64,000 bases of DNA from Candidatus Poribacteria bacterium (GCA_965200395.1 CBDAUH010000003.1:959097-1023096); one strand, 5' to 3'; positions 8,790 through 42,910 are shown, counted from the stretch's first letter. Notes: generated by a model not told the origin, from the letters alone. Numbers and translations: made by a program.

Positions 8790-8790
8790 A

Positions 8791-20555: not shown

Positions 20556-21254
20556 ATGCACAGACCTCGAACAGTTAATGGAATACTCAGGAAATTAGAA
20601 GGAAAGGCGGATACTAGCGAATATTTTTATCGTGGTGAACCTGAACATTATCAGGAAGAACCTTATTTTGGAATAGTCTCCTCAAACTTTTATCGTGAGC
20701 TTCTTAAAGACAATAGCTTTGATGTTAAAGCAGAACACTTTGATATAGAAGAACTCCAGACCGCAGTACTGGGTGTTTCTCAGCAATTTTCACGAAAGCC
20801 AGTAAGTGAACTTGAACAGCTTTCTGTAATTCAACACTATGGAGGCAAAACAAACCTCATAGATTTCACGAAAGATTATCTTATTGCGCTTTTCATTGCA
20901 TGTGATGGATCTCCTGATGAGGATGGTAGGATCATCTTGCAAGAAAAGAAACTGATGGAACCTTATATTGCAGAGTCTTATGAACCAATAAATCGTGTCA
21001 TTGCCCAAAAAAGTGTTTTCGTGCGGCACCCAGATGGTTATATTCAACCAAACGACGATGATATTATCAATATTCGGTCGGACCTCAAACAACCAATGCT
21101 AATGCATTTACGATACTCACACGATATTTCTGTTGAAACGATTTATAACGACATACACGGCTTTATAAAAGATCAAAGCAATCACATGCAATTCTACAAG
21201 ACGATTTATGAAGGTTTAGTCCAAAAACAGAAAGGAGATTCAGGAGATGGCTAA
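20556..21254 (+). CDS. FRG domain-containing protein
   Basis: 232 aa. N-terminal FYRGE motif and the downstream QHYGGKTNLIDFT ... ALFIA block characteristic of the FRG domain (recalled as PF08867). Confidence 0.75.
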   Translation: MHRPRTVNGILRKLEGKADTSEYFYRGEPEHYQEEPYFGIVSSNFYRELLKDNSFDVKAEHFDIEELQTAVLGVSQQFSRKPVSELEQLSVIQHYGGKTNLIDFTKDYLIALFIACDGSPDEDGRIILQEKKLMEPYIAESYEPINRVIAQKSVFVRHPDGYIQPNDDDIINIRSDLKQPMLMHLRYSHDISVETIYNDIHGFIKDQSNHMQFYKTIYEGLVQKQKGDSGDG

Positions 21255-22974
21255 CGAATCGAGGATGGCACATTATGAAGAAGCTGCCAAACATTTTACT
21301 GAAGCCATTCGTATGAGGCCCGGTTTTGCTATGTCCTATGTCTTTCGAGGCGAGGTCTACCACAAAATGGGTAAGTATGATCTTGCGATTGCTGACTTTA
21401 CTGATGCGATTTTCTGGACTCGGCAACCTGCAAGGGCATATTTTGGTCGTGGTATGGCACACGGTGCTGAAGGTGAAATTGACAAAGCAATTGAAGACTT
21501 CACGAAGGCGATTCGACACGAACCTGACTACGCAGAGGCATATTACCATCGTGGGAATGGTTATGCCATTAAAGGCGAGTTTGATTGTGCCATTGAAGAC
21601 TGTGACAAAGCGATACAACTTAATCCTGATCTTGCTGATGCCTATCTGGTTCGTGGTAATGCTTATAGCCGTAAAAGTGAATCTGATTTAGCCATTATGG
21701 ACTATAGTAAGGTTATTAGACTTAAGCCAGATTATGTTGAAGTTTACGTTCTTCGTGGTAATACTTATAATAGCAAAGGCGAATTTGACAAAGCTATTGC
21801 AGACTATACAAAAGCATTAGAACTAAACCCCAATTATGTTGAAGGTTATGTTATGCGCGGATACGTTTATGTTATTCGCGGACACGTTTACGGACGACAA
21901 CATGACTTTGACGCTCGACAACATGACTTTGAATCTGCTATTGCAGACTGTGAAAAAGTGATGCAACTTGTACCTAAAGCTGCTGCTCCCTATATTACTC
22001 GCGCAACTGTTTATAGTCTTATAGGTGATTTTGACGCTGCTATTGCAGACTGTGAAAACGCGATAGAACGTACTCCAAAAGCTGCCGATGCCTACCTAAT
22101 TCGTGGTATCGCTTATAGCAATAAAAACAAATTTGATTTAGCTGTCTCGGATTGTACAAAAGCGATAGAATTGCAACCCAATTACTTGGATGCATATTAT
22201 GAACGCGGCAACGTTTACAACAGTAAAGATGAACTCGACAAAGCAATCAGAGATTATACCAAAGTTATTGAACAAGCTCCGCAGCACATTGAGTGCTATT
22301 TCAACCGCGGTATCGCTTACCGTAAAAAACGTCAATTTGATAAAGCAATTGCAGATCATAGTATGGTTATCCGACTCCAACCAGAACATGTTTCAGCATA
22401 TATGAATCGTGGTTTCACTTCTGCTAGCAAAGGAGATTTTGATTATACTATTGCAGATTTTACGCGTGCAATACAACTCGATCCACTGTCTTATATATTA
22501 TATTATAATCGTGGGAAAGTATATGACAGCTTAAGCAACTTTGATATGTCTCTTGCCGATTATAACACAGCTATACAACTCAATCCTAGTTTTGCGATGA
22601 CATACTATGATCGTGCTAAAGTATGGTTGCACCACAAAAAGTGGGAAAATGCAAAATCTGACTTAACTGATGCAAGGAACAAGGGTATAGATATTGCTGC
22701 AGTTTTTAGTAACGAGTATATAGACATCGCTGACTTTGAGAAAAAAATAGAGGCAAAATTACCAGAAGATATTGCTGCGATGCTAAAGCAACAAGCAAAG
22801 CAAGGTCATATTCCACCTAAAGAAAAAGAGTTATTTGGATTACAAGGCAATAGGGAATCGGACTTTATTGACAACTTCACACCAAGGTTGCAACAAACAG
22901 GTCAAACTTCTATTCCAATTAATAAACATGATTCAGTCTCAAGTCAAACATCACTTAGCCTATTTGCAAATTAA
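21247..22974 (+). CDS. Tetratricopeptide (TPR) repeat protein, about 15 repeats, with a non-TPR tail of about 110 aa
   Basis: 575 aa with a 34-aa periodicity of A-I-x-D-(F/Y)-(T/S)-K-A-I-x-L-x-P-x-x-x-x-A-Y-x-x-R-G. Its start overlaps the FRG gene stop by 8 nt. Confidence 0.9.
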   Translation: MANESRMAHYEEAAKHFTEAIRMRPGFAMSYVFRGEVYHKMGKYDLAIADFTDAIFWTRQPARAYFGRGMAHGAEGEIDKAIEDFTKAIRHEPDYAEAYYHRGNGYAIKGEFDCAIEDCDKAIQLNPDLADAYLVRGNAYSRKSESDLAIMDYSKVIRLKPDYVEVYVLRGNTYNSKGEFDKAIADYTKALELNPNYVEGYVMRGYVYVIRGHVYGRQHDFDARQHDFESAIADCEKVMQLVPKAAAPYITRATVYSLIGDFDAAIADCENAIERTPKAADAYLIRGIAYSNKNKFDLAVSDCTKAIELQPNYLDAYYERGNVYNSKDELDKAIRDYTKVIEQAPQHIECYFNRGIAYRKKRQFDKAIADHSMVIRLQPEHVSAYMNRGFTSASKGDFDYTIADFTRAIQLDPLSYILYYNRGKVYDSLSNFDMSLADYNTAIQLNPSFAMTYYDRAKVWLHHKKWENAKSDLTDARNKGIDIAAVFSNEYIDIADFEKKIEAKLPEDIAAMLKQQAKQGHIPPKEKELFGLQGNRESDFIDNFTPRLQQTGQTSIPINKHDSVSSQTSLSLFAN

Positions 22975-24462: not shown

Positions 24463-24489
24463 GCGACCATATTGCTAAAGGAATTCTAT

Positions 24490-26063: not shown

Positions 26064-26078
26064 TAACCCGAACTCATG

Positions 26079-27044: not shown

Positions 27045-27131
27045 GGGGTTTTCCTCTCATGGAATTGATCATCAAGTTATCTCTATCATATCACGACATT
27101 ACATGTAAATCAAGGTATGTGCAAAAACGTT

Positions 27132-28450
27132 TAGGGTTATTTAGTTTTATAGATATTCATTTTATCAAGTTAACTGTGAGTAAAGGTTTTGATGCATATT
27201 CCTTTATTTTATCAGCGATCCGTGTTATGCCTTGAAAACGGAATACGGATAATGCGGTATTTCGTAAAGCGGCCATGACTTGTGGAATAGCCCCGCATCT
27301 GACAGGTGATGCGTCCTCGCCGAGTAGCACATCGCGCATCCAATGCGACTTGTTCTCTATTGCCCAATGGCCTCTCCGTAAAGCAAGTAAGCGTTCTGCG
27401 GATGCCTCACTCGGTTTCAGGCTCGTAATCCCATAGGTAGTGCGGGTTGTCTCTTCTCCTGTCTTCATATTTTTGGAAGTATAGCAATATTGGATCACTT
27501 GTGCTACGCCCGGCCAATCCAGATATGCGTTGAGACTTGTGCTTGCCTTGATACATCGCGTCTCAAGTCTGCCATGCGACTTTTCAATCGTCTCATGCAT
27601 GTATATCGGTTTCCCTAAAGTAGGGTGTGTTGTGTCTTCAGAAACCGCGTCAGGCACGCCTTGAAAAAGTTTTTCAATCGCTTCTAACAGGTCCGGTTGA
27701 TTGCCTTTAACAGGCAGCATATAGTCGCCCCCGCTGTTTATGATTCCGTGGCAGAAAGAGCGTTGTGTCAAAAGGGCATCCGTTGTGATAACTTTGCCTG
27801 CTACATCAAACGCTTTGAGGATTTCCGTTGATACCGGTATTTCATTGGTTTTGTCGCTGACACCTCGCTGCGTGAGGGTGATCCCTAACTCATGAGAGAC
27901 GACGGAGAGTAAATGGCTGATCATCGCACCACTTTTTTTAGACGCACGCAGGGTTTTGCCATCTATAGCGACTGCGTCGGAACACCCCCGCAAATCAGGG
28001 CACTCTGCTAATGCGGCGTTTACCCATTTTGACAGGATGTTTTCTAATGCCTCAACGTCCAACTTTTTCAACAGATTATGGATAGTTGCGGCACAAGGCG
28101 TTTTGTGATGTGTGAACCCGAGTGCTTTTGTGAGTGCGGGCTGTGAGCGTGCCCAGGTAGCGATGGATGTATACCCTTTATGCCCGCACATCAATCCAAC
28201 GACTAAAAGTGCGAGGATTGCTTTCAAGGGGTGCCGTTTCCCTTTTTCCTTGCGTGGGTCTGTAAGTTCTGCTAACATATTGACTAAGTGGCAGGACTTT
28301 TTTCTTGTCATTCTTCACCTCAAAAGATCGTAAGTTTTTAAGGTGAAGTATAGCAGATATAGCGTGAAAAATCACGGTATATCTGCACATCCTAAAATAT
28401 TAACGATTGTGATAAAAAACAACTAAAATACATAAAACTAAATAACCCTA
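27132..28450 (-). mobile_element. ISAs1-family insertion sequence, copy 1 (1319 bp)
   Basis: Perfect 19-bp terminal inverted repeats TAGGGTTATTTAGTTTTAT (27132..27150) and ATAAAACTAAATAACCCTA (28432..28450). Its own 9-bp direct repeat AAAAACGTT lies at 27123..27131 and 28451..28459. Confidence 0.85.
27157..28311 (-). CDS. ISAs1 family transposase
   Basis: 384 aa. The N-terminal L.ELTDPR...GKRHPL..IL.L block and the C-terminal HWAIENKSHWMRDV..GED block are typical of ISAs1. It differs at only 4 residues from the copy at 36820..37974. Confidence 0.9.
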   Translation of the reverse strand: MTRKKSCHLVNMLAELTDPRKEKGKRHPLKAILALLVVGLMCGHKGYTSIATWARSQPALTKALGFTHHKTPCAATIHNLLKKLDVEALENILSKWVNAALAECPDLRGCSDAVAIDGKTLRASKKSGAMISHLLSVVSHELGITLTQRGVSDKTNEIPVSTEILKAFDVAGKVITTDALLTQRSFCHGIINSGGDYMLPVKGNQPDLLEAIEKLFQGVPDAVSEDTTHPTLGKPIYMHETIEKSHGRLETRCIKASTSLNAYLDWPGVAQVIQYCYTSKNMKTGEETTRTTYGITSLKPSEASAERLLALRRGHWAIENKSHWMRDVLLGEDASPVRCGAIPQVMAALRNTALSVFRFQGITRIADKIKEYASKPLLTVNLIK

Positions 28451-28528
28451 AAAAACGTTTGAATTTCCGTTGAATTTTGATATAATGTGGATAGAGAGGT
28501 AGTATTGATGTGTTGAGAGAACATACTT

Positions 28529-29905: not shown

Positions 29906-29987
29906 TAGATAGTGTGGGTTCGGTTTCTTGGCTTGTCAGAATCGCGGATTACGTGGATGAGATACTCTCTGGACAATTGAACTTGTT

Positions 29988-31241
29988 ATGCTTACGAAAG
30001 ATTTACTTCGATATAAAATCCGAGATGGGCAAATCTATCCTCAATTTGTGAAACCTACCGATAGTAAATTACTGTCAGTTTCCGATCAGTTGATTTCGAC
30101 TTTTGAAGCATCTACAAACATGCAACGCGCAACATTATTAGAGACCAGCAAGCATATTATTGATAGCACCCCGGGAACACTTGTTGTCAAACGGGGGCTT
30201 GAAAAACTTTTGTTAGATCGGACAGAATTTGATACTGCTCCGAACGAAGAACTAATTGGGTTTCGGCAAAGTCTTTTCACAGAGACGAGTCGCCTTCTTT
30301 CACAAGATCAGTTTACGGATTATGAGGATTATCATCAGAAAGTTCTGCAGGTTGCAGGGGAAGAATCGCAATCAGAGAAAGAAGCGTTAGGTGATAGACT
30401 GTATGCTGATCTACCGAGTTGCCAACTTGTGTTGTCATTTAAAACACTATCTGCAGAACACCTACTTCACAGATATAACAGTGCACAAGTGCAAGGATTA
30501 CTCCTCCATTGTAACTCTTTGACTTTAAATCTATCTGAGTCCATGACTGCCGAACTCCGTCAATTGTTCAAATATATGAGATTCAATCAACTCCTTTCTA
30601 CGATTTGTAAGGAAAAAATTGGAAACGATGATTGCTTCCAAATTACGGTAGATGGGCCGCTAAATTTGTTTTATAAAACGAAGCGGTACGGAATGAATTT
30701 AGCGAACTTCTTCGTCGCTGTATTACATCAACCGAAATGGGAACTCATGGCAGAGATTCAGTTTAGGCATAAAAAAAGTTCTCGACTATACTTAAATGAA
30801 TCGTGTGGCATCAAACCGATTTCACGGCAATTTCTCGCTTATATTCCTGGGGATATCCAACTTTTTCAAGAGATGCTCCGTAATAAAACTGGTGACTGGC
30901 AAATTCGTCCGGGAAGTCAGTTCCTTCCTTTACCAGGAAATTTCTACTGCTTTCCAGACTACCAACTCGTTCATACCAGTGGAATTGAAGTGTGGATAGA
31001 GTTATTTCATCCGTGGCATCAAGGGCATCTCCTTGCGCGGCTGAACACACTTGCAGAACAGACAGAAATACCGCTTATTCTTGGCGTATCAAAGGAATTA
31101 CAGAAACAGTCGATGATCGCAGAGGCAATGGAAACGTCCGAGCATTTCTCAAAGTTCGGTTTCACATTCCGCGATGTCCCGACAATGAATGCCGTGTTAC
31201 CTATTCTCAATTCTTTTACTGATGGTACTTACGTCTTGTAG
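29988..31241 (+). CDS. DUF790 family (Bax1-like nuclease) protein
   Basis: 417 aa directly downstream of the XPB-like helicase, which is the canonical XPB-Bax1 gene order. The N-terminal LLRYKIRDGQIYPQF start resembles DUF790 members. Assignment is by recollection, not by search. Confidence 0.65.
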   Translation: MLTKDLLRYKIRDGQIYPQFVKPTDSKLLSVSDQLISTFEASTNMQRATLLETSKHIIDSTPGTLVVKRGLEKLLLDRTEFDTAPNEELIGFRQSLFTETSRLLSQDQFTDYEDYHQKVLQVAGEESQSEKEALGDRLYADLPSCQLVLSFKTLSAEHLLHRYNSAQVQGLLLHCNSLTLNLSESMTAELRQLFKYMRFNQLLSTICKEKIGNDDCFQITVDGPLNLFYKTKRYGMNLANFFVAVLHQPKWELMAEIQFRHKKSSRLYLNESCGIKPISRQFLAYIPGDIQLFQEMLRNKTGDWQIRPGSQFLPLPGNFYCFPDYQLVHTSGIEVWIELFHPWHQGHLLARLNTLAEQTEIPLILGVSKELQKQSMIAEAMETSEHFSKFGFTFRDVPTMNAVLPILNSFTDGTYVL

Positions 31242-31607
31242 CGTAACCTTTCCATGTTGTGCAGCTTTATGTAGCATACCCTTTCATGAAGATTAACTTA
31301 TTCTTTGGGTAATTCTCGTTTTTTTGTCAGAATCGCGGATTTACGCTGATTACGCGGATTAGCGCGGATTGTCTTTGCTGTGCGTTTATCCATTTTTGTA
31401 GGGTTTACTCTTTGTTTGCATCTCACGGATGCACAAACTGTATGAAGATTAATAATTTAATTTGGTAATCTCTTGGAGATGCCGGTGTAGCTAGGAAATC
31501 ATACTCACAGGGCTTGGAGAGTATAGAATTACCCAAATATTTTCTTAAACTTCATTCATGTTGTGTCTTTGTAGCACATCCTTTCCAGGTTGTGCATCCT
31601 AAAAAAT
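31238..31607. repeat. Mosaic intergenic repeat region with three interleaved repeat families
   Basis: Reverse-orientation 30-mer hairpin repeats at 31238..31290, a degenerate one near 31395..31425, and 31578..31607. A CGCGGATT cluster with GTCAGAATCGCGGATT at 31326..31370. An ATGAAGATTAA..TTTGGGTAATTCT motif runs forward near 31283 and 31441 and inverted near 31520..31556. Confidence 0.65.
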
Positions 31608-31652
31608 GTCTTATTCTGAACTGACGTTAAAATAAAAAGATCTAGGATATCC

Positions 31653-31681
31653 TTGACATCTTCAGCAAGATATGTTATCAT
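31653..31681 (+). promoter_or_regulatory. Sigma-70-like promoter of the protease-TPR gene
   Basis: TTGACA (31653..31658), 17 nt, TATCAT (31676..31681). The same block is conserved upstream of the paralogue at 38005..38033. Confidence 0.55.
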
Positions 31682-31736
31682 TTTGCTAATAACATATTCA
31701 ACCTTCAGACAAGCTATACCAGCAAAGGAAAACAGT

Positions 31737-33419
31737 ATGAAACATAAAGATAAATTATTGTGGGTATTTTCCCAATGTGCGGTTGCTTTTTTTCTCTTTT
31801 GCACCATAAGCACAGCATCTGCCCAACAAACCCCTCTCCCCGCCGAAGCTATTGCAGAGAAAGCATTAGCAGCGACAGTATACCTGGAGATGCAGGATAA
31901 AAACGGAAAAACCCTCGGCATCGGCAGCGGATTCTTCGTGAAGTCCAATCTCATTGCTACGAACTACCACGTGATTGAAGGTGCAGCCAAAGGCACCGCA
32001 AAGTTAGTCGGTAAATATACCCAATACAATATTGAAGGCGTTACAGCAACTGACAAGATAAACGACCTTGCACTCCTAAAGGTAACCGCGTACGGCATCA
32101 AACCGCTTTCGCTTGGTGATAGCAATATTGTGCAAGTCGGTGAAACTGTTTATGTTGCGGGCAATCCGAAAGGGTTAGAGGGCACCTTCTCGGATGGCAT
32201 CATCAGTAGCCGTAGAGATAGATATACAAAGGAACGTTTGCAGATGACTGCGCCGATTTCTCCTGGGAGTAGTGGGGGTCCCGTGCTAAACCGTAAAGGT
32301 GAAGTGATTGGTGTGTCCTTTTCTTTCTATAGAGGCTTGGATGCGCAGAACCTCAACTTTGCCATCCCATCCAGATACCTTAAGAAGTTGCTGCAGCAAC
32401 CGGGGCTGTCAAAACCTTTATCCCAAGGACAACGTTCTATTTCTGCGGAGACCTACTTTCAGTGGGGGTATGCGAAGGGCGAGTTAGGGGATTATGCGGG
32501 TGCCATCACAGATTATACCAAGGCTATCCGCCTCAAACCCGATGCTGCCGAGGCATACTACAATCGAGGAAATGTGAAGGGTCATTTAGGACAATACAGT
32601 GCTGCGATTGCTGATTTTGACACCGCCATAAAACTAAAACCCAATACTGCCGAGGCATACTACAATCGGGGAGTTGTGAAGGGTCGTTTAGGACAATACG
32701 GTGCTGCGATTGCTGATTATGGCATCGCCATAAAACTAAAACCTGATGCTGCCAGTGCATACATCAATTGGGGAGCTGCGAAGAATAGCTTAGGACAACA
32801 CGCTGCTGCGATTGCTGATTTTGATACTGCCATAAGACTACAACCTAATGCTGCTGATGCATATCTCAATCGAGGAGCTGCGAAGGCTAACTTGGGACAA
32901 TACAGTGCTGCGGTTGCTGATTATGACATCGCCATAAAACTAAAACCCGATTATGCCAAAGCATACATCAATCGGGGAGCTGCGAAGAATAGCTTAGGAC
33001 AACACGCTGCTTCGATTGCTGATTTTGACACCGCCATAAAACTACAACCCAATGCTGCTGATGCATATCTCAATCGAGGAGTTGCAAAGGGCATCTTGGG
33101 CCAACATTTTGCTGCGATTGCTGATTTTGATACTGTCATAAGACTACAACCCAATGCTGCTGATGCATACATCAATCGGGGAGCTGCGAAGAATAGCTTA
33201 GGACAACACGCTGCTGCGATTGCTGATTTTGATACTGCCATAAGACTACAACCCAATGGTGCCGAGGCATACTACATTCGAGGAGTTACGAAGGCTCGTT
33301 TAGGTCGGACACTGGAAGCGCGGCAAGACCTCCGCACTGCACTGCGACTTGCAACACAAGCGGACGATGCAAAACTTAAAGCAAATATAGAGAAGGTACT
33401 ACGTATTCTTAATAAGTGA
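31737..33419 (+). CDS. Secreted trypsin-like (S1) serine protease fused to about 9 TPR repeats
   Basis: The ATG at 31737 (AAAGGAAAA upstream) gives a signal peptide MKHKDKLLWVFSQCAVAFFLFCTISTASA. Catalytic triad contexts NYHVIEG, NDLALLKV and GSSGGPV, followed by AIADFDTAI-(K/R)-LxPN-type TPRs. The track start at 31653 is the -35 box. Confidence 0.85.
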   Translation: MKHKDKLLWVFSQCAVAFFLFCTISTASAQQTPLPAEAIAEKALAATVYLEMQDKNGKTLGIGSGFFVKSNLIATNYHVIEGAAKGTAKLVGKYTQYNIEGVTATDKINDLALLKVTAYGIKPLSLGDSNIVQVGETVYVAGNPKGLEGTFSDGIISSRRDRYTKERLQMTAPISPGSSGGPVLNRKGEVIGVSFSFYRGLDAQNLNFAIPSRYLKKLLQQPGLSKPLSQGQRSISAETYFQWGYAKGELGDYAGAITDYTKAIRLKPDAAEAYYNRGNVKGHLGQYSAAIADFDTAIKLKPNTAEAYYNRGVVKGRLGQYGAAIADYGIAIKLKPDAASAYINWGAAKNSLGQHAAAIADFDTAIRLQPNAADAYLNRGAAKANLGQYSAAVADYDIAIKLKPDYAKAYINRGAAKNSLGQHAASIADFDTAIKLQPNAADAYLNRGVAKGILGQHFAAIADFDTVIRLQPNAADAYINRGAAKNSLGQHAAAIADFDTAIRLQPNGAEAYYIRGVTKARLGRTLEARQDLRTALRLATQADDAKLKANIEKVLRILNK

Positions 33420-33666
33420 GTAGGAACGGTTTAGAAGCACACCACAATTACTGAAGAAAACTGGAAGGTTTTACACAACTAATGATATGCCCCATCTCTT
33501 CTGATCAAGAACTCAATCCAGCAGTGGATTAATGTAAAACTCTCCGAGGGCACTGGGACTCCTTTTATTCACCATGAATCCACGCCGGAGTCCCTGCGAT
33601 TATTATCACGCCGCTCTTACTTCCACAGTGAGTCTGCTGAAATAAACAGAGAGTGCTTTATTGACC

Positions 33667-34812
33667 TCAATTTATTTTTAGAACCTTCCGAAACCCATCA
33701 GAACCATAATATTCACATGCAAAAATTTCAGGGTCTTTTGTTGGTAGAAGAACCCGCCCGCACTCCACCGCAATTGATACAGGGACCGCCGGTAAAATAA
33801 AGACTTTGCAACGGTGTCCATGCGCGGCTTGCACTCGATTGAGTAATTTCCGATACTCATAACTGAAATGTTCAAGTTGCTTCGGATTTCTTAAAAAAAG
33901 TGGTGAAGGATCCTTAATCGTTATTTCGTAAATACTAAAAGAATCGTCAATGAAATCAGCATATTTGTCCTTGTTGATTATATCGCTTAAAGCCAATACG
34001 ATTGCAACGTTTTCGCTGTCTTCTACAACCCGAATAGCGTTCACAATGTAGGCAGTGTGCGTCTCCCGTTCTTCCACCGGCCATGACCAGGTTTGGCTTG
34101 TATTCTTGATTTTTCTGTGGCTTTGGTATAGATCTGCTGGAATGGTATCCCTGATACATTTGCCCAAAAACATGAGCAGGGGCTGAGGCCCGATAGCAAA
34201 CACAGAGAAATGTTTGACTCCCTTGTGATCTATGCTGTCCTCAACACGAGTTTTGATTTTTCTCTCAATCCGTTTTGCAAAAGCCTCCCATTCTGATTCA
34301 GCCCCATGTCGGTCAAAATCCTGATCATCAATCTTAATCCCTTCATCAACGGGATATTTCGGGAACATTGCGTTGCGATACGCTTCAGGGTTAATTGGAG
34401 CCACCCGGTCTTTGATTTTCACCGTGAACAGCACAACCGTGGACTTATGGATATCCTCCGGATAGTTTGTTTGAATCTCTATCCGCTTTTCATGCTCCTG
34501 TTTCCACTGACGGAGCAGCTCTACGGAGTATCGATTCGGGTCGTCGTCAATCTCCTTATGACATCGTTGACATAAGAGCATGAGGTTATCATAGTCAATT
34601 CGCAAATCTGCAGATTCTTCACTCCCACGCGGTCCATCTTCACTAGACGCAATAATGTGTGCCACTTCTGCAAAATTGCCGTCGCTAAGCGTCAAATTAT
34701 TCCGCCAGACGGGCTGATTACATCCGCGAAATTCGCACCTGCCCGCTGCTCTAACCCATAATTTCAGGCGAGTATGCTGTGGTGTGGATTTTAATATTTT
34801 TTGAGTATTCAT
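33667..34812 (-). CDS. cap5: CBASS effector: HNH endonuclease fused to a SAVED sensor domain (Cap5-like)
   Basis: 381 aa. The N-terminal HNH has a zinc knuckle (CEFRGC ... AHII ... NLMLLCQRCHKEID). The C-terminal 250 aa or so match my recollection of SAVED. It lies 15 nt downstream of a CD-NTase gene. Confidence 0.8.
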   Translation of the reverse strand: MNTQKILKSTPQHTRLKLWVRAAGRCEFRGCNQPVWRNNLTLSDGNFAEVAHIIASSEDGPRGSEESADLRIDYDNLMLLCQRCHKEIDDDPNRYSVELLRQWKQEHEKRIEIQTNYPEDIHKSTVVLFTVKIKDRVAPINPEAYRNAMFPKYPVDEGIKIDDQDFDRHGAESEWEAFAKRIERKIKTRVEDSIDHKGVKHFSVFAIGPQPLLMFLGKCIRDTIPADLYQSHRKIKNTSQTWSWPVEERETHTAYIVNAIRVVEDSENVAIVLALSDIINKDKYADFIDDSFSIYEITIKDPSPLFLRNPKQLEHFSYEYRKLLNRVQAAHGHRCKVFILPAVPVSIAVECGRVLLPTKDPEIFACEYYGSDGFRKVLKIN

Positions 34813-34826
34813 AGGTTTAAAACCAA

Positions 34827-35804
34827 TTATGGAGTCGGAAAATCATCTCCGAAAACACCTTGTAAAAGTTGGCAAGATGTCAAAGTGTCAACCGTCAATT
34901 CTATCTGATCTAAAGTGTCTCTAAGGGTTTCGAGGCTGCTCTTAAAGTTTCCCATCTGCTTATCACTCATTTTTTCAAACAGGTCGTTGTAGGGTGGAAC
35001 AGGGAGGGTAACACTCATACACCTCGTCCACATGAACTGGTTTATAATTACCTGAGTCAAATTTTTGAGTGCTGTTAAATCGTCATAATAATATTGCCCA
35101 TCAGGAAGATTATAACGACTCTTTATCTGGAACCACTTCAGGGCACAAGCACTGATCGCGATTCCTGTTGGACGTTCGTTTCCATTTGCCAAGAAGTTTA
35201 CGTCTTTCCACCGCTTCAGAAACCGGATGACTCGTCTAAATTGATTTTGATCACCTTGATACTGAAATTTTTGCCGAAAGATTTCTAGCAGTCTTTTAGG
35301 CTTGGCGACATCCCAAATCCTATTTTCTGCTCCTGAGCCTGGAAAGCCTTTCGCTAAATAGGTTTGGTTGTCCCAATTAGAGGCACTTCCCGAATAGACC
35401 GCCAAGTCAACGTGATAGAGTACCTCACCTGCTCGATGGTACTGGACTCTCACGCAAGGGCGTTTGTATTCCACGGTTCTATTTCCAGTATTTAAGGCCT
35501 CATAAACCCATTCTTTGACTTTTACAGGGGAATAGTCATTTTTTGATAGATGAAATTCTAATCCCACATCAATATCATAATCTTCGCCGGGGAGGGGCTC
35601 AATACCTGTCCCTATCGCGTAACTCCCTTGATTAAAATGTTCAAATCTTGGGATTCGTACTCCATGCTCTTGTGCGTACCTCTGTAACCCTTGCCGTAAA
35701 TCACGTAAAAGCAAGTCTCGCTTGTCTCTCAAAACGCTATTGTCATCGTAACTTCTTCTGATCTTTTCGTCAAACTTATTGAAGTACGTCTGCACATTTG
35801 CCAT
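34827..35804 (-). CDS. CD-NTase (cGAS/DncV-like nucleotidyltransferase, SMODS)
   Basis: 325 aa. Pol-beta NTase signature QGSYAIGTG ... DYDIDVGL, with the third acidic residue in HVDLAVY. Clade not determinable by eye. Confidence 0.85.
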   Translation of the reverse strand: MANVQTYFNKFDEKIRRSYDDNSVLRDKRDLLLRDLRQGLQRYAQEHGVRIPRFEHFNQGSYAIGTGIEPLPGEDYDIDVGLEFHLSKNDYSPVKVKEWVYEALNTGNRTVEYKRPCVRVQYHRAGEVLYHVDLAVYSGSASNWDNQTYLAKGFPGSGAENRIWDVAKPKRLLEIFRQKFQYQGDQNQFRRVIRFLKRWKDVNFLANGNERPTGIAISACALKWFQIKSRYNLPDGQYYYDDLTALKNLTQVIINQFMWTRCMSVTLPVPPYNDLFEKMSDKQMGNFKSSLETLRDTLDQIELTVDTLTSCQLLQGVFGDDFPTP

Positions 35805-35823
35805 AGTTTTCCATATCCTCTGA

Positions 35824-36215
35824 TCATGGTTTGATAGCTTTTAAAACTTTATCCCAATGGTCGTAAGCCGCAACGTCTGCAGCGAGTACCGAGATCTGCT
35901 GCAGGGTCGGCTGCTTGTTTTTGTCGCCTGTGAGCCGCTGACACGACCACTCAGGCGCACTTCCATCCGTATTGAAAACGAGCGCGGTAATTGGGGGATA
36001 CTTTCTCTCCATTCTTCTTCTAGTCGTTCTATCTTGCTCACAATATGCGCCAATATCTTGATATAATAAGAGCCTGGTTTATCTCGACAGAGCACTTTTC
36101 TGATTTCTACAAAATCAGAATATCCTTGTGAAACGAGGTGAAGCATAACGACATAAGCGTGCATGGGCATATTAGATTTTGAACCAGGGGTTATAGATTC
36201 GGCTTGTGTTTTCAT
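35824..36215 (-). CDS. Unrecognised leader gene of the CBASS operon (about 130 aa if one frameshift is repaired)
   Basis: The track shows two overlapping minus ORFs (35841..36215 and 35824..36012). Adding one A to the AAA run at 36002..36004 (minus strand) joins them into MKTQAE...IERLEEEWRE-KYPPITALVFNTDGSAPEW...KAIKP. AAAGGAG RBS, and the stop lies 19 nt before the CD-NTase ATG. Confidence 0.5.
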
Positions 36216-36243
36216 AAAAGATACTCCTTTTCTACGGGGAAGA

Positions 36244-36272
36244 AACTGCCTCTATTATACAATCTTTGTGAA
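36244..36272 (-). promoter_or_regulatory. Consensus sigma-70 promoter of the CBASS operon
   Basis: On the minus strand: TTGACT (36272..36267), 17-nt spacer, TATAAT (36249..36244), about 30 nt before the ATG at 36215. Confidence 0.6.
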
Positions 36273-36454
36273 AAAAAGTCAAATTCGTGAAAAAAGCAGA
36301 TCTATTCAATTGTCGCGGTGTTCTTTAGAGGTGTGAATATAAATGAAGAATTCTATCCAGAGCCATTCAATTGTCGCGGACTTATCGTCCTCCGCAATGC
36401 TGACAAAGATAATCCGGGGAATGCCTAAATGACATTCATACCGTTGATTTGGCG

Positions 36455-36632
36455 AAAATCCGCGATTCTGACAAAAAATCCGCGTGATCCGCGCTTCAGA
36501 CAACCCGCAATCCGCGTTCATTCTAATCATAAGAAAAGCACCTTGAAGTAACGAACTCCTAATCCGCGTAAATCCGCGTAATCTGTGTAATCCGCGATTC
36601 AGACAAACAAAAATCCGTGTCCTCCGCGATTT
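36455..36632. repeat. Cluster of about 8 AATCCGCG (CGCGGATT) octamer units
   Basis: AATCCGCGATTCTGAC at 36457..36472 is the exact reverse complement of the 16-mer at 29935..29950 and 31326..31341. A second copy at 36589..36604 has 1 mismatch. 36552..36604 aligns with the reverse complement of 31326..31370. Confidence 0.65.
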
Positions 36633-36681
36633 GGTAAAATCGACTTTTGAATGCCTCCGTTGAAAACAAAAACACCCTTGA

Positions 36682-37999
36682 TAGGGTTATTTAGTTTTAT
36701 GTATTTTAGTTGTTTTTTATCACAATCGTTAATATTTGGAATGTGCAGATATACCGTGATTTTTCATGGTATATCTGCTATACTTCACCTTAAAAACTTA
36801 CGATCTTTTGAGGTGAAGAATGACAAGAAAAAAGTCCTGCCACTTAATGGATATGTTAGCAGAACTTACAGACCCACGCAAGGAAAAAGGGAAACGACAC
36901 CCGTTGAAAGCAATCCTCGCACTTTTAGTCGTTGGATTGATGTGCGGGCATAAAGGGTATACATCCATCGCTACCTGGGCACGCTCACAGCCCGCACTCA
37001 CAAAAGCACTCGGGTTCACACATCACAAAACGCCTTGTGCCGCAACTATCCATAATCTGTTGAAAAAGTTGGACGTTGAGGCATTAGAAAACATCCTGTC
37101 AAAATGGGTAAACGCCGCATTAGCAGAGTGCCCTGATTTGCGGGGGTGTTCCGACGCAGTCGCTATAGATGGCAAAACCCTGCGTGCGTCTAAAAAAAGT
37201 GGTGCGATGATCAGCCATTTACTCTCCGTCGTCTCTCATGAGTTAGGGATCACCCTCACGCAGCGAGGTGTCAGCGACAAAACCAATGAAATACCGGTAT
37301 CAACGGAAATCCTCAAAGCGTTTGATGTAGCAGGCAAAGTTATCACAACGGATGCCCTTTTGACACAACGCTCTTTCTGCCACGGAATCATAAACAGCGG
37401 GGGCGACTATATGCTGCCTGTTAAAGGCAATCAACCGGACCTGTTAGAAGCGATTGAAAAACTTTTTCAAGGCGTGCCTGACGCGGTTTCTGAAGACACA
37501 ACACACCCTACTTTAGGGAAACCGATATACATGCATGAGACGATTGAAAAGTCGCATGGCAGACTTGAGACACGGTGTATCAAGGCAAGCACAAGTCTGA
37601 ACGCATATCTGGACTGGCCGGGCATAGCACAAGTGATCCAATATCATTATACTTCCAAAAATATGAAGACAGGAGAAGAGACAACCCGCACTACCTATGG
37701 GATTACGAGCCTGAAACCGAGTGAGGCATCCGCAGAACGCTTACTTGCTTTACGGAGAGGCCATTGGGCAATAGAGAACAAGTCGCATTGGATGCGCGAT
37801 GTGCTACTCGGCGAGGACGCATCACCTGTCAGATGCGGGGCTATTCCACAAGTCATGGCCGCTTTACGAAATACCGCATTATCCGTATTCCGTTTTCAAG
37901 GCATAACACGGATCGCTGATAAAATAAAGGAATATGCATCAAAACCTTTACTCACAGTTAACTTGATAAAATGAATATCTATAAAACTAAATAACCCTA
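36682..37999 (+). mobile_element. ISAs1-family insertion sequence, copy 2 (inverted relative to copy 1)
   Basis: Same 19-bp terminal repeats at 36682..36700 and 37981..37999. Its own 9-bp direct repeat CACCCTTGA lies at 36673..36681 and 38000..38008. Confidence 0.85.
36820..37974 (+). CDS. ISAs1 family transposase
   Basis: 384 aa, with 4 substitutions relative to 27157..28311 (V10M, N11D, V-to-I and C-to-H near GVAQVIQYCY). Confidence 0.9.
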   Translation: MTRKKSCHLMDMLAELTDPRKEKGKRHPLKAILALLVVGLMCGHKGYTSIATWARSQPALTKALGFTHHKTPCAATIHNLLKKLDVEALENILSKWVNAALAECPDLRGCSDAVAIDGKTLRASKKSGAMISHLLSVVSHELGITLTQRGVSDKTNEIPVSTEILKAFDVAGKVITTDALLTQRSFCHGIINSGGDYMLPVKGNQPDLLEAIEKLFQGVPDAVSEDTTHPTLGKPIYMHETIEKSHGRLETRCIKASTSLNAYLDWPGIAQVIQYHYTSKNMKTGEETTRTTYGITSLKPSEASAERLLALRRGHWAIENKSHWMRDVLLGEDASPVRCGAIPQVMAALRNTALSVFRFQGITRIADKIKEYASKPLLTVNLIK

Positions 38000-38004
38000 C
38001 ACCC

Positions 38005-38033
38005 TTGACATCTTCAGCAAAATATGTTATCAT
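38005..38033 (+). promoter_or_regulatory. Promoter of the disrupted protease-TPR paralogue
   Basis: TTGACA (38005..38010), 17 nt, TATCAT (38028..38033). The ISAs1 target duplication overlaps the TTGA of the -35 box. Confidence 0.5.
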
Positions 38034-38077
38034 TTTGCCAATAATACATTCAATCTATACAGTAAAGGAAAAACATT

Positions 38078-39209
38078 ATGAAACATAGAGATAAATTATT
38101 GTCGGTGTTCTCCCAATGTGCAGTCGCTTTTCTTCTCTTTTGCACAATAAGCACAGTACCAGCACAAACCATTCTCCGTGCCGAAGATATTGCGGAAAAA
38201 GCATTAGCAGCAACAGTATACTTGGAGATGCAGGACAAAAACGGAAAAACCCTCGGCATCGGCAGTGGGTTCTTTGTGAAATCTAATCTCATCGCTACGA
38301 ACTACCATGTGATCGAAGGCGCAGCCAAAGGCACCGCAAAGCTAGTCGGTAAATATACGCAATATAACATTGAAGGCGTTACTGCGACTGACAAGGTAAA
38401 CGACCTTGCACTTCTAAAGGTAACTGCGTACGGTATCAAACCGCTTTCGCTGGGTGAAAGCGATACTGTGCGAATCGGTGAGACGGTCTATGTTGCAGGT
38501 AATCCGAAAGGGTTAGAAGGCACCTTTTCGGATGGTCTTATCAGTAACCGTCGGGATAGGTACACAAAAGAACGTTTGCAGATGACTGCGCCGATTTCTC
38601 CTGGAAGCAGCGGTGGTCCCGTGCTAAACCGTAAAGGTGAAGTGATTGGTGTGTCCTTTGCTGTCTATAAGGATTTGGATGCACAGAACCTTAACTTTGC
38701 TATTCCATCTAGATACCTCAAAAAGCTGCTGAAGCAATCGGGGCTGGCAAAACCTTTGTCACAAGGACAATCTTCTATCTCTGCGGAGACCTACTTCCTA
38801 TGGGGAAATGCAAAGTACAAGTCAGGCGATTATGCGGGTGCCATTGCAGACTATACCAAGGCTATCCAACTCGAACCCAATGTTATCTCAGTATACAACA
38901 ATCGGGGACTTGCGAAGGCTAGCTTGGAACAATACGCTGCTGCGATTGCCGATTTTGACATTGCTATCAGACTACAGCCTGATGATGCCAATGCATACAA
39001 CAATCGAGGAATTGCGAAGTATGAGCTGGGGCAACACTTTGCTGCGATTTCAGATTATGATATTGCCATAAGACTCAAACCCAACAATGCTAATATATAC
39101 CACAATCGGGGGCTTGCAAAAGATAGCTTAGGACAACACTTTGCTGCGATTGCCGATTATGATATCGTCATAAGACTACAACCCAATAATGCCGGAGCAT
39201 ACCGTATTA
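38078..39209 (+). pseudogene. Trypsin-like protease-TPR paralogue, 5' part, interrupted by an IS4-family element
   Basis: Very similar to 31737..33419 through the protease domain and the first TPRs. The frame leaves TPR sequence exactly at the IS end (...NNAGAYRI then IS-encoded TIVWTFLVLL). Confidence 0.8.
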
Positions 39210-40769
39210 CTATAGTTTGGACATTTTTGGTCTTGTTATAGATTATGAATAGTTGGCAGCATTTCCCCGTTAGCACTTCTGAACAGGTGTTAGAACCGCT
39301 GCTAACGCCCCTTTTCTGTCTAAATTCTGTTAGAAATCACTGTTTTTTAGTCATCATTTTTCCAATAATCGTGAAAATAGTTGCTGTTGAACTAGTTCAT
39401 GTAGTATCTTCGGGGATTTTTAGTTTTTTCTGTGCGTTTTTCCTCGGGTCGTAACCCGTATAAAAATAGTTTTGTTGTAAACATCGCTGCAAGTAAGCGG
39501 TCATCAAGCCGCGTGTGAGATGTTTCGGTTTATACCAGTGTATATTGAGCGTGGATAGCACGTCTTCTAAATCAAGAGAAACCTTGTCTGTGTCTGTGTC
39601 TGCGGGTGTCTTAGGCAATGGCGACGGACTGAAAGCGAGTTGTGTCAGCGTTGCTGCGGTGAAACTGAGTTGAGCGAACCGATCCAAACTTTTCCTGTCT
39701 CGGAGTTGATAGGTGTCAAATCCGAAGTTTTCTTTAGCGTCCCGAAAGGCAGTTTCAATCTGCCACCGGTTTCTATAGTGTCGGATAACTGTTTCTACGG
39801 GCAGTCGTAAATCTGAAGTAAATACACAAAAATACCGATAGGGTTTAGACTTTTTCAAGCGTTTGCGTATCACAACGATGCGGACATCTACAGGACACAT
39901 CTTTGTTCGCACGACTTTATCAGCGACAGAAAGTGTCTGATCCTCAACAACGATATCTGTATACTTCAGGTGTGGAATAGACACACGGCTACCATACCGA
40001 CGGGGTCTGCCTCTCTTGAGACGCTTAGGGCGTTTCGGTATATCAAAAAACGCTGCGTTTGACTTCGCACGACAAAGTAAATGATGTCCTTGTGAGAGTA
40101 TCTCCGTGAACACTTTGCGTCTATTGAAACCTCTATCAAAAATGATAAGACCCGGTGGCACAAGATTACATAAATGCTTCAGCACAGCGAGGCTATTCGC
40201 GTCCTCGCTTTTCGGTTCCATCATCCGTGTGGCTAATGGAAACAGGCGCGTGCCTTCGGGCGTTTCTGCCAGCCAGCCAATCGCACCGAACTTGTGTCCG
40301 TGATGAAACTTGGACTGGTTCTTGTTACGTGGCTGATACGCAGGGTTCCTGCGGAAATGCAAACCCGCTTGTTTTGAACCGCTACTTATGGCATGCGTCT
40401 CATCATAGACATAGACGCCCGTGGGGTAAGCGGATAGCACTTGATGGCTTAGCGTAGTGGCGACTTGATCCACACACCAGATGCCACGCGAGAGAAACTT
40501 TGGCAGAGACCAATACCGACCTGCTTGGGCTGTCGCAAGATAGATTTGTGTCATTGTGCCTCGGTAGGGCGTATTTATCAGACCTTTTACGAAAGTCTGA
40601 AAGTGGTGAAAGTTATTATACTTGAACAAAGGTCAAAAATCTGATAACATGTTGTCCAAGTAGGAAAGTGGGGTCATTTGAAATATCCTTTCAAATTTGT
40701 GTTTCCTAAAAGGATACCCGCTTTCCTGCTTTATGTCCATAAAAAAAACAAAAAATGTCCAAACTATAG
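39210..40769 (-). mobile_element. IS4-family insertion sequence, copy B (diverged relative of copy A)
   Basis: Ends CTATAGTTTGGACATTTTT (39210..) and AAAAATGTCCAAACTATAG (..40769). A 10-bp direct repeat TACCGTATTA lies at 39200..39209 and 40770..40779. Confidence 0.8.
39397..40677 (-). pseudogene. IS4-family transposase with an in-frame TGA at codon 15
   Basis: The frame from ATG at 40677 reads MTPLSYLDNMLSDF-TGA-PLFKYNNF..., aligning with copy A (MNLLFCLDDILSDFQYLF...). The TGA is at 40633..40635. The track ORF 39397..40629 (TTG start, 410 aa) is the remainder and keeps the DDE and YREK motifs. Confidence 0.65.
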
Positions 40770-40919: not shown

Positions 40920-40949
40920 GTAGGAACGGTTTAGGAACACGTCACAATT

Positions 40950-42401
40950 GTAGGACAGACGCAAGTTTGGGTGTTTCTGTTTAGGATTACCCCCCTTTAT
41001 CCCGCACTTACCCCCATTTTTTTTTGAATGCGTGTGTAGTTGTGTTCATAGGTCTCCAATGTTGTCATGTCAGTTCTTCTGCGGTGAGAAAGTTTATATC
41101 TCTCAAACAAGTCCTCTCGGTGAACAAGAGCAACGCCTCCTGCGTCCACACCTCGCGGATCATACGGTTGATGACACTGATCACGGAGTAAACTTTCCGC
41201 GTAGGGTGTAAAGTTTTTGCCCATCTGTCCGCAGCTTTTTCATAACACAGGAACGCCAAACCATAAGCCACGACTGCCAACAAAAACAGAACTTCCATCC
41301 GGGGCTGTTCGTTCTTTCTCAAAACGAGTGCTTTGAAACCGAAGTTCGTTTTCAAGTCTCTGAACCCGTGTTCAATCTGTGTCCGCCGCTTGTAGCAAGT
41401 TCGCAGGGGGTTCCCCTGAAGCCGATTGGAGATAAGATATAACGGGTCTTTCTTGGTGTGCTGTCCCCCAACATAGAGTGCCACAGGCACCTGCTCCGTG
41501 TAGTGATAAAGCACTTGTGGGTAAAAACCATTTGCCACTTCTTCAAGGCACTGCTTGTTGCCTGCTATACGCACACCAACATTGCGTGGCACACGCATCA
41601 AGTAGCAGATGCCTTGCCCCTCAAAAAACTTGAGGATCGCTCTCGCTCGGGCGAACCCTCTGTCAAAAACCAACACAGGCTCCCGACTATCCCCTAACAC
41701 TTTAACAACGCGACTATGGACATCACAACAGAACTGCTGAACTAAATCGTTATGTCCTTGATAGGTGCCATCTTTGAGCATCTCATTTTTATACAGAACC
41801 CAATAGAGCGGGATCGCACGATTGCGAAACGGAAGGGCTGCAACAATCGCCTTCCATCCGCCCGGTAAATCTGTCTCGTCTATCAGCACAAGCAGATGCT
41901 GCATCCCCACAGAACGACACACACTGACAACTATATGTGACAACCAAGCACCCTTCACCGCTGCAACCGGAAAATAGGTGTCAATAAACCGCAACACACG
42001 CTTTTGCTTAGACTTGTCGTGTTTCACACGGATAGGTAGATGTGAGGCAATCGATTGAATACGAAAACTTGGGGCTACACACACAGCCTGTAGCATCAAA
42101 TAAAAGTTGCGGAGCGTCGGTTTTTTGATACAAATCCCGTTGAAAACTTTACGAAAACCTGTTATAATCTTTCTGGGATGTACCCAGCTAAGGGTATATT
42201 TCATAAGAATACCTCCCTGCCGGTTTTTCACCGACATTGGTTTATATGGAGGTATTCTACCATAACCCATCAGACTTTCCAACTTATTTCTATACACACA
42301 CACGCCTACACATACCGCATACAAAAATGGGGGTAAGTGAGCCCGCAAGCGGGGGGAATGAGAGAGTGGTACCCGCAGGCGGAGGGAATACGTAAGTCCT
42401 G
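40950..42401 (-). mobile_element. Third IS (IS4-like, different lineage); boundaries approximate
   Basis: The sequences flanking it (...CACAATT and AATTACTGAAGGAAACTG...) are contiguous in the paralogous 3' region after 33419. There are imperfect subterminal inverted repeats around ACTTACCCCCATTTTT (about 41005 and 42335) and similar ends (T/C)AGGAC. A possible 4-bp AATT duplication is present. Confidence 0.55.
41065..42204 (-). CDS. IS4-like DDE transposase
   Basis: The ATG at 42204 follows GGGAGG; the track start at 42498 adds 98 low-complexity residues. Motifs LIDETD and VFDRGF, and Y-(2)-R-(3)-E-(6)-K in YKRRTQIEHGFRDLK. Confidence 0.85.
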   Translation of the reverse strand: MKYTLSWVHPRKIITGFRKVFNGICIKKPTLRNFYLMLQAVCVAPSFRIQSIASHLPIRVKHDKSKQKRVLRFIDTYFPVAAVKGAWLSHIVVSVCRSVGMQHLLVLIDETDLPGGWKAIVAALPFRNRAIPLYWVLYKNEMLKDGTYQGHNDLVQQFCCDVHSRVVKVLGDSREPVLVFDRGFARARAILKFFEGQGICYLMRVPRNVGVRIAGNKQCLEEVANGFYPQVLYHYTEQVPVALYVGGQHTKKDPLYLISNRLQGNPLRTCYKRRTQIEHGFRDLKTNFGFKALVLRKNEQPRMEVLFLLAVVAYGLAFLCYEKAADRWAKTLHPTRKVYSVISVINRMIREVWTQEALLLFTERTCLRDINFLTAEELT

Positions 42402-42580
42402 AATTACTGAAGGAAACTGAACAATTTGGGCGTACACAACAATTGATAGAAAATTCAGTTGCAAAGCGGTCCGAGGTGTAGTCGTCAGGAAGTTTCAAAC
42501 CACGGATATTTCTTCAGTAGATTCAAAAGTTTAGATATTTTAGGATTTATGTTGTTTTGCTTCAGTGTGCGTGGGTGAAG

Positions 42581-42910
42581 ATGCGCAACCTGGAAAGGTT
42601 ATGCTACAAAGATGCGCAACCTGGAAAGGTTATGCTACAAAGATGCACAACCTGGAAAGGTTATGCTACATAGGCGAACTGCACAACCTGGAAGGGTTAT
42701 GCTACACAGTGCGGGCGAACATGCGCAACCTGGAAAGGTTATGCTACATAGTGTGCGGACCAACATGCACAACCTGGAAAGGTTATGCTACAAAGATGCA
42801 CAGCTTGGAAAGGTTATGCTACATAGTGTGCGTGGTGAATATGCACAACTTGGACATGTTATGCTACATAGTGGGACGAACTACACAATCCTGGACAGGT
42901 TGTGGGACAT
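42581..42910 (+). repeat. Tandem array of nine copies of the 30-bp hairpin repeat
   Basis: Unit ATGC(R)CAACCTGGAAAGGTTATGCTACA(W)A, with 1 to 15 nt between units. The last two units are degenerate. Each unit can fold as GCA.AACCT-GGAA-AGGTT.TGC. Confidence 0.85.

Follow-up and report, generated by a model that had tools for sequence, protein, structure and literature searches.

A 64,000-nucleotide stretch of DNA from a Candidatus Poribacteria bacterium (GCA_965200395.1 CBDAUH010000003.1:959097-1023096; hereafter the window, from whose first letter all positions are counted) carries a small antiphage locus at positions 33,667 to 36,272. Three coding regions lie on the minus strand downstream of one promoter, the last ending at 33667: a short leader gene, a CD-NTase (the cyclase of an antiphage signaling system based on cyclic oligonucleotides [CBASS]) and a Cap5-type effector. 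A first-pass annotation, made from the sequence alone, had described this arrangement as a compact CBASS operon led by an extra gene. The analysis reported here supports a type I CBASS core, finds the leader to be frameshifted, and leads us to favor, with fair confidence, a self-contained two-gene CBASS cassette standing behind a separate, frameshifted defense-island module. The features that carry this argument are as follows (nt, nucleotides; aa, amino acids).

36254..36282, minus strand: sigma70-like promoter (TTGACT at 36282..36277, spacer of 17 nt, TATAAT at 36259..36254)
36224..36229, minus strand: AAGGAG ribosome-binding site, 8 nt before the leader ATG at 36215, read from the sequence
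35994..36215, minus strand: N-terminal part of the leader, residues 1-74, frame A (100% identity in tblastn with the repaired protein)
35993..35997, minus strand: C5 run and frameshift site, one base fewer than in homologues (ATC CCC C^AA TTA)
35824..35992, minus strand: C-terminal part of the leader, residues 75-130 and stop codon, fully conserved in frame B
34827..35804, minus strand: CD-NTase (CBASS cyclase), 325 aa
33667..34812, minus strand: Cap5-type effector, 381 aa; HNH nuclease at the N terminus, SAVED sensor at the C terminus
33669..35826, minus strand: conserved two-gene CBASS cassette (ribosome-binding site, CD-NTase and Cap5), delimited by blastn and common to leaderless loci

The promoter agrees with the consensus at 11 of 12 positions and is the top-scoring site within 33300..36800; its two elements and spacer are as first annotated, and the motif described there as perfect is near-perfect. 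Sites scoring at least 11/12 number 9 in the whole window (2.3 in shuffled sequence), most of them directly 5' of open reading frames (ORFs), and because of this enrichment and placement the consensus seems to be meaningful in the host organism. The leader stop codon is separated from the CD-NTase ATG by 19 nt and the CD-NTase stop codon from the Cap5 ATG by 14 nt, the second value falling just outside the 15-19 nt first given. Directly upstream of the -35 element, the motif CGCGACAATTGAAT, which contains the palindrome CAATTG, occurs in two exact copies (36304..36317 and 36365..36378, minus strand; spacing, 61 nt). This pair could be a regulator binding site, and it was not found upstream of leader homologues elsewhere.

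The CBASS core

The first-pass annotation had recognized a CD-NTase and an HNH-SAVED effector, and both calls were borne out. The gene at 34827..35804 matched the PADLOC cyclase profile PDLC00795 over its full length (residues 1-325; E = 5.6e-106) and Pfam DncV-like_NTFase (E = 1.6e-14), and its translation contains GS (QGSY), DID (EDYDIDVG) and a later D (HVDLAVY), matching the GS...[D/E]x[D/E]...D signature. At least 90 homologues with at least 64% identity were listed (range, 64-81%). The best PDB matches were an unnamed "nucleotidyltransferase" series (8YSC, 8YSD and 8YSN; E = 2e-71), and the nearest named solved relative was BfCdnB (7LJO; E = 1.6e-15), a clade B04 enzyme (PMC10442399; PMC12804361). 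The only other named match below 1e-3 was a cGAMP synthase (E = 2e-5), and solved CdnG enzymes were absent from the PDB matches.

The effector matched the PADLOC profiles Effector/Endonuclease (E = 9.9e-117) and SAVED_HNH (E = 8e-111), Pfam SAVED in its C-terminal half (residues 182-380; E = 1e-36), Pfam HNH (residues 46-87; E = 4.6e-5) and NCBIfam SAVED (E = 2.5e-31). Its HNH motifs (AHII...NLMLLC...CHKEID) include the catalytic His/Asn/His which, together with a C-terminal SAVED domain, define Cap5, and it aligned over its full length with solved Cap5 (7RWK; E = 5e-38). The best PDB match was 8YSQ (E = 4.5e-57), the partner of the 8YSC/8YSD series that also gave the best cyclase matches; none of the papers searched cites 8YSC, 8YSD or 8YSQ. 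Pfam searches of all flanking ORFs from 24472 to 42498 returned only insertion sequence (IS) transposases, XPB, DUF790, trypsin-TPR, a dehydrogenase and a sulfatase, with no Cap2/Cap3, HORMA/TRIP13 or type IV (QueC/TGT/OGG) genes. Since a CD-NTase and a SAVED effector stand here with no adjacent accessory genes, the locus is classed on gene content as type I CBASS of the CD-NTase-Cap5 kind, as the first-pass annotation had proposed.

In CBASS with a CD-NTase and Cap5, infection activates the cyclase, the cyclic nucleotide product binds SAVED, and the HNH domain degrades DNA, resulting in abortive infection. The closest described counterparts are the CdnG-Cap5 type I systems of Asticcacaulis and Vibrio cholerae (PMC12804361; Cap5 structures 7RWK, 7RWM and 8FM1), which likewise encode a CD-NTase followed by an HNH-SAVED protein, lack Cap2/3 and HORMA/TRIP13, and have a Cap5 to which that of the window aligns end to end. 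The window differs from them in that its cyclase is not close to solved CdnG, being nearer to BfCdnB and the 8YSC/8YSD series, and in that its cassette would be transcribed behind an unrelated small gene. The same cyclase lineage is combined with a different effector elsewhere: locus L014 (2702..5981) has no Cap5 and carries, next to its 71%-identical CD-NTase, another of 386 aa in tandem as well as a patatin phospholipase.

A frameshift in the leader gene

In the window the leader is split between an ORF of 124 aa (36215..35841) and one of 62 aa that overlaps it in another frame (36012..35824), and the gene of about 130 aa first annotated is obtained only by reading across a frameshift. Frame A continues past residue 74 to a stop at 35841, so that the last 50 residues of the 124-aa ORF are out of frame. 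The 124-aa ORF was considered as a real product and rejected, as nothing matches these 50 residues and all homologues agree with the other frame. At nine homologous loci the codons are ATA CCG CCA ATA ACC or synonymous ones where the window reads ATC CCC C-AA TTA CC, and the alignment of homologous proteins puts the break at W-x-E-S-I-P|P-I-T-A-L-V-F. The leader as it reads in the window thus lacks one base.

A query joining the two halves retrieved 72 homologous proteins, most of 115-134 aa and colinear with both halves. Restoring the missing base yields a 130-aa protein that is 65-80% identical to approximately 70 homologues; in a comparison with 26 homologues, identity over the full length was 47-80%. 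The repaired protein aligns with the family from end to end and retains its conserved W69, I73-P74, V80, Y118 and W121. Ratios of nonsynonymous to synonymous substitution (dN/dS) between the repaired leader and its homologues were 0.08-0.13, and no stop codon follows the shift in the homologous frame; the frameshift is therefore either a very recent lesion or an assembly error. The C-run is missing from all nine homologous loci at the frameshift site, where the codons are CCG CCA, CCA CCA and similar, so a conserved recoding site does not explain the shift. Two leader homologues, P0069 and P0071, also have the appearance of mid-gene frameshifts, at positions unlike that of the window; these are either long-read assembly errors or recurrent decay of the gene.

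Two modules meeting at the leader stop codon

The claim that the leader belongs to CBASS had been given a test beforehand, namely, whether it is syntenic with CBASS in related genomes. Eleven of approximately 170 family contexts were inspected, and none of the 10 distinct contexts other than that of the window had a CD-NTase beside the leader homologue. Three involve FRG-TPR genes: a 725-aa FRG-TPR gene, leader, tyrosine recombinase and FRG gene in succession; an FRG-TPR gene followed by a leader, three small ORFs (one HNH-like) and a recombinase; and a leader with an N-terminal extension that precedes FRG-TPR. In others, the leader stands between genes for a trypsin-like protein and an EEP nuclease, after an HNH_2 gene, or between a Type ISP restriction-modification enzyme and an AAA_15/21 ATPase. 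At two loci a DUF4268-fused leader is followed by a ThsB-like TIR gene, an 8xMP membrane protein gene and recombinases, and in a further context an island of SLOG, PRTase, SLOG-HNH and GmrSD has an IS3 element after the leader. The DUF4268-fused relatives match PDC-S11 and the FRG and FRG-TPR neighbors match PADLOC PDC-S15. One distant member lies by an island of methyltransferase and NTase-HEPN genes followed by genes for a 1003-aa protein and an AAA_15 ATPase; another lies on a Vibrio cholerae contig in an integron-cassette-like setting beside a DUF645 gene.

The reciprocal comparison gave the same picture. The closest CD-NTase loci fetched (four loci representing three distinct contexts; 71-79% protein identity) contained no leader homologue by tblastn at E ≤ 10. 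At L015/L016 (79%), CD-NTase and SAVED/Cap5 stand behind RmuC and small ORFs, and at L017 (77%) they stand behind an SNF2-NOV_C helicase. At the nucleotide level the cassette is 77.5% identical to L017 over 35826..33669 and 79.4% identical to L015/L016 over 35804..33676, with unrelated flanks, and this homology starts at or just after the leader stop codon. DNA homology of the leader loci to the window is confined to 36231..35828. Because cassette homology and leader homology meet at the leader stop codon, two independently conserved modules abut at a gene boundary. The list of leader matches and that of the best 120 CD-NTases had a longest contig in common only twice (390,900 and 170,088 nt), and the genes were >5 kb apart in both. 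On present evidence from gene order and homology, the leader appears not to be a CBASS-specific accessory. The earlier interpretation is right for the CBASS core and, on present evidence, wrong for the CBASS-specific extra gene: the leader is frameshifted, the synteny proposed as its test was not seen in the 10 other contexts, and the closest CD-NTase loci do without it.

The leader family and its domain X

We refer to the homologous region as domain X. A pattern scan of 185,579 species-representative genomes found only three loci, all in metagenome-assembled genomes of Candidatus Poribacteria, and a scan of JGI metagenome contigs added one, which duplicates the HNH_2 context. When 1.84 billion representative proteins were searched exhaustively with a profile, only 84 matched at E ≤ 1e-3, and a profile search of a set of 5.8 billion clusters returned 167; among the matches of these searches, none had a Pfam domain over the homologous region. 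These counts describe domain X as a small uncharacterized family of approximately 170 clusters, the close relatives of which appear essentially confined to Candidatus Poribacteria. Judged by where this family and the nearest named CD-NTase homologues occur, the window too probably belongs to that taxon. Neither the two ORFs, nor the repaired protein, nor the family profile had a credible match in Pfam, NCBIfam, PADLOC, PHROGs or PDB sequences, in keeping with the first-pass view that the gene is not a known accessory; the known CBASS accessories and regulators (Cap2, Cap3, Cap6-8, CapW and CapH/CapP) gave zero profile matches in Pfam, PADLOC, NCBIfam and PHROGs. Profile searches of the PDB with the family gave isolated weak matches to unrelated proteins, and a match to NSE2 (E = 0.0045) that covers a helical stretch was judged spurious.

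Distant members are either stand-alone proteins of approximately 140 aa or fusions. The fusions comprise X-FRG-TPR (P0248), EVE-X-nuclease-like (P0271), X-HNH (P0311), X-Hypoth_Ymh (P0322) and DUF4268-X (P0193, P0194, L007 and L008), together with proteins in which X is followed (P0228, P0267, P0268 and P0272) or preceded (P0200) by a domain with an invariant D...EVK motif. From this motif and weak matches to YraN and Tox-REase-9, we infer that the latter domain is PD-(D/E)xK-like. The partnership with FRG-TPR takes both forms, a fusion (P0248) and adjacent genes (L006 and L001), and of the hints that X is functionally linked to its neighbors this is the strongest. A subfamily of 230-aa homologues (P0011, P0013 and approximately 25 others, such as L006 6001..6693) has a conserved N-terminal extension of approximately 100 aa, MQPLG...TFVTLHEVSVEKK, in which no known domain was matched.

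Short tyrosine recombinases (248-265 aa, 68-88% mutual identity) recur zero to three genes downstream of leader homologues (L001 6448..7245; L007 7542..8321 and 8786..9475; L011 7378..8124), often on plasmid-like circular contigs that also carry genes for ParA and RHH proteins. Their recurrence suggests a recombinase-driven cassette system in Poribacteria; the window has no such short tyrosine recombinase. A promoter or operator common to the leader loci was considered and rejected, DNA similarity being confined to the coding sequence.

AlphaFold2 models of the leader were confident (predicted local distance difference test, 87.5 with close homologues and 90.9 with a broad alignment) and describe a compact, mainly helical protein with two short strands. 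Because the invariant residues across the family are P74, Y118 and W121, the near-invariant ones are hydrophobic, and no catalytic-type polar residue is conserved, domain X would seem to be a binding domain rather than an enzyme. Foldseek searches of the PDB (two models) and BFVD returned nothing at E ≤ 1e-3, and viral matches were uncharacterized with E ≥ 0.06. The top three PDB matches in both runs were MGMT, Ada and ATL domains, below significance (E = 2.9-5.3; TM score, 0.32-0.39), and one distant member had a subthreshold match to PF01035 (E = 0.16).

The MGMT/ATL winged helix (PF01035; 1SFE, 2KIF and 1MGT) is the sole recurring structural neighbor of the X model. The elements follow a similar order in the two (a helix, a short strand, two helices of which the second is long, and then a strand and hairpin with "IP-x-I-x-x-L-V," recalling "IPCHRVV"), but X reads IPPIT at the PCHR position (PWHR in ATL), having no Cys, His or Arg there and no catalytic cysteine, and has three extra C-terminal helices. 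With CapW/BrxR (WYL-wHTH) and CapH-CapP, domain X shares the habit of a small promiscuous gene upstream of various defense operons. In contrast to these regulators, the leader has no WYL, XRE-HTH or metallopeptidase match in Pfam, NCBIfam or PADLOC; it is co-oriented with CBASS, whereas they are usually divergently transcribed; and its family is acidic (median pI, 5.3), with no conserved operator found and with nuclease fusions that are not typical of repressors. The distant architectures X-HNH, X-PD-(D/E)xK-like and EVE-X-nuclease-like resemble the readers of modification-dependent (type IV-like) restriction enzymes, in which EVE, SRA or wH domains are fused to HNH or PD-(D/E)xK nucleases, but the Poribacteria-type X proteins are stand-alone, and the assignment of the fused nuclease comes from the D...EVK motif and the weak YraN and Tox-REase-9 matches.

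The island around the locus

The CBASS operon lies within an 8.2-kb segment bracketed by two inverted IS copies, its immediate flanks being an IS and a convergent trypsin-TPR gene. The other features of this segment are as follows.

36682..38002, plus strand: IS copy approximately 400 nt upstream of the promoter, with a transposase at 36820..37974 (DDE_Tnp_1 and DDE_Tnp_1_assoc)
27129..28450, minus strand: second IS copy, inverted, 98.6% identical to the copy at 36682..38002, at the other edge of the segment
28529..29905, plus strand: XPB-like helicase (XPB_DRD, ResIII and ERCC3_RAD25_C)
29988..31241, plus strand: DUF790 (Bax1-family) protein, following the XPB-like helicase

The IS is 1322 nt long, its two copies having one indel between them, 19-nt terminal inverted repeats and an intact 384-aa transposase each, and the bracketed segment looks like a composite transposon. 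The first-pass description of an IS-bounded island beside a helicase/nuclease-like pair held up in that the XPB-like helicase, the DUF790/Bax1-like protein and a trypsin-TPR gene lie between the two copies. The core of the helicase also matches PADLOC PbeA (E = 3.5e-54), and the DUF790 protein had no PADLOC match. The GC content of the segment is the same as that of the rest of the window, and further IS4-type transposases lie to the right of the island (39397..40629 and 41065..42498).

Paralogous genes for secreted trypsin-like/TPR proteins lie at 31653..33419 and 38078..39241 (plus strand), each with 102-nt periodic TPR repeats and each behind a promoter matching 11/12 consensus positions (31653 and 38005); the second copy is truncated beside an IS. 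A trypsin-like gene also precedes the leader homologue in L013. Two repeats mark the island as well. The 23-31-nt repeat ATGCACAACCTGGAAAGGTTATGCTACAAAG is present in eleven copies, with none expected by chance (at 26008, 31237, 31570 and 42586..42868), clustering between genes of the IS-rich island and along its outer margins, and looks like a genome-specific REP-like (repetitive extragenic palindromic) element. The sequence CGCGGATT occurs 11 times in the window against 1.8 expected, with clusters that share the motif TTTTTGTCAGAATCGCGGATTT after DUF790 (31334..31370) and between the IS end and the CBASS promoter (36457..36596). Outside the segment, an FRG-domain ORF (20556..21254, plus strand; PADLOC PDC-S15, E = 9e-15) overlaps a TPR ORF (21247..22974, plus strand) by 8 nt in a different frame, and its relatives are single FRG-TPR proteins (L001, 725 aa; L006; L015; P0248); the pair may be a natural split of a defense-candidate gene, or else a second case of frameshift or pseudogene formation.

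Interpretation and alternatives

We consider it fairly probable that the locus is a self-contained two-gene type I CBASS cassette behind a separate, frameshifted defense-island module; the leader would be a separate module juxtaposed here, because the closest CBASS loci lack it and their homology to the window ends at its stop codon. By membership of their families, the CD-NTase would be activated on phage infection and make a cyclic oligonucleotide that is probably a dinucleotide; Cap5 would bind this signal through its SAVED domain, and the HNH domain would then cut DNA indiscriminately, so that the infected cell would die before phage release. The cassette at 33669..35826, found without the leader in many Poribacteria-type genomes, would have come to lie against the stop codon of an independently shuffled module, the promoter and ribosome-binding site of which would now head a three-cistron transcript. 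From the frameshifted leader no more than a 124-aa product would be made, the C-terminal half of it scrambled, and the intact cyclase and effector would probably be expressed from the leader's promoter with no contribution from X. In its intact form, to judge from gene order and fusions, X may be a nonenzymatic binding module (a sensor, adaptor or regulator, with a ligand that is possibly nucleic acid) combined with variable defense effectors.

Several points weigh against this interpretation. Cotranscription of leader, CD-NTase and Cap5 is a prediction, made from no more than the 19-nt and 14-nt gaps and the lack of a better internal promoter. With 11 of approximately 170 contexts inspected, the leader may be paired with CBASS elsewhere. 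If the frameshift is a homopolymer assembly error, the leader is intact and could well act on the CBASS genes. The defense association of X could simply reflect residence in defense islands or mobile elements, and the MGMT/ATL fold assignment, being below significance, is a lead only. Lastly, an acidic pI is unusual for a DNA-binding repressor and no operator-like motif is conserved upstream of leader homologues (no common k-mer of ≥9 nt), which together weaken a simple autoregulating-repressor model.

The alternative that survives best is that the leader really is a new accessory gene of this CBASS, serving as a sensor that activates the CD-NTase or as an operon regulator, and that the frameshift is a homopolymer sequencing or assembly error. 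The locus has the look of a tight operon with one strong promoter, and a perfectly conserved, stop-free post-shift frame with dN/dS of ∼0.1 is what a sequencing error would give. Moreover, X is repeatedly the 5' gene of defense effectors, sometimes fused to them, a "sensor plus variable effector" logic that could include CBASS, and we know of no identified trigger for type I CD-NTases. We nevertheless regard this alternative as unlikely: the leader is missing from the closest CBASS loci, the homology of the CBASS cassette ends at the leader stop codon, the pairing of X with a CD-NTase was seen only in the window among the contexts examined, and, among the matches listed, the leader and the best 120 CD-NTases coincide on two contigs with the genes >5 kb apart.

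It is also possible, and in our judgment quite unlikely, that the leader is functionally unlinked to its neighbors, being an independent small gene carried by mobile elements or plasmids of Poribacteria (serving, for example, in maintenance, anti-defense or addiction) whose proximity to defense genes comes only from both accumulating in common islands. The presence of homologues on circular contigs of plasmid-like character, alongside ParA and RHH genes, the related small tyrosine recombinases nearby (68-88% identical, zero to three genes downstream), upstream partners that vary as much as the downstream ones, the acidity of the proteins and the integron-cassette-like setting of the Vibrio cholerae member beside DUF645 would all fit such a gene. 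The fusions to HNH, PD-(D/E)xK-like, EVE, FRG-TPR and DUF4268, however, argue for a role inside defense proteins over simple co-location, and the occurrence of FRG-TPR both fused to X (P0248) and adjacent to it (L006 and L001) is a classic Rosetta-stone signal that the two are functionally linked.

A programmed or phase-variable frameshift, by which slippage in the C-run would switch the leader, and CBASS through it, on and off, was rejected as highly improbable: the shift does sit in a homopolymer (C5), and P0069 and P0071 also look frameshifted in the same general region, but none of the nine homologous loci has a C-run at the site, the P0069 and P0071 shifts are at other positions, C5/C6 is short for phase variation, and there is no X XXY YYZ slippery heptamer or Rfam frameshift element.

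A broader proposal can be made for the family, to which we give little credence at present: domain X may be an undescribed nonenzymatic module through which prokaryotic immune systems sense or are adapted, perhaps as a nucleic-acid reader of the ATL-like kind, and which plugs into FRG-TPR, ThsB-TIR with 8xMP, AAA_15, EEP, HNH or PD-(D/E)xK partners and, here, type I CBASS.

Implications

The CBASS of the window is in itself routine, one more CD-NTase-Cap5 pair in a sponge-symbiont lineage where the cassette is common. The additional leading gene ought to be kept out of catalogues of CBASS accessories, and annotation pipelines will wrongly report it here as a 124-aa protein whose C terminus is nonsense. 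The locus illustrates concretely the shuffling of whole cassettes at gene boundaries within the defense islands of Poribacteria. Domain X, a small, confidently folded family missed by profile searches that stands before or is fused to at least eight kinds of defense effector, is a candidate new defense-island module of moderate interest in itself. Should the frameshift prove to be an assembly error, the locus would offer a naturally occurring case in which a dedicated sensor encoded upstream is coupled to a type I CD-NTase, and such a role for X, if true, would be relevant to the triggering of type I CBASS.

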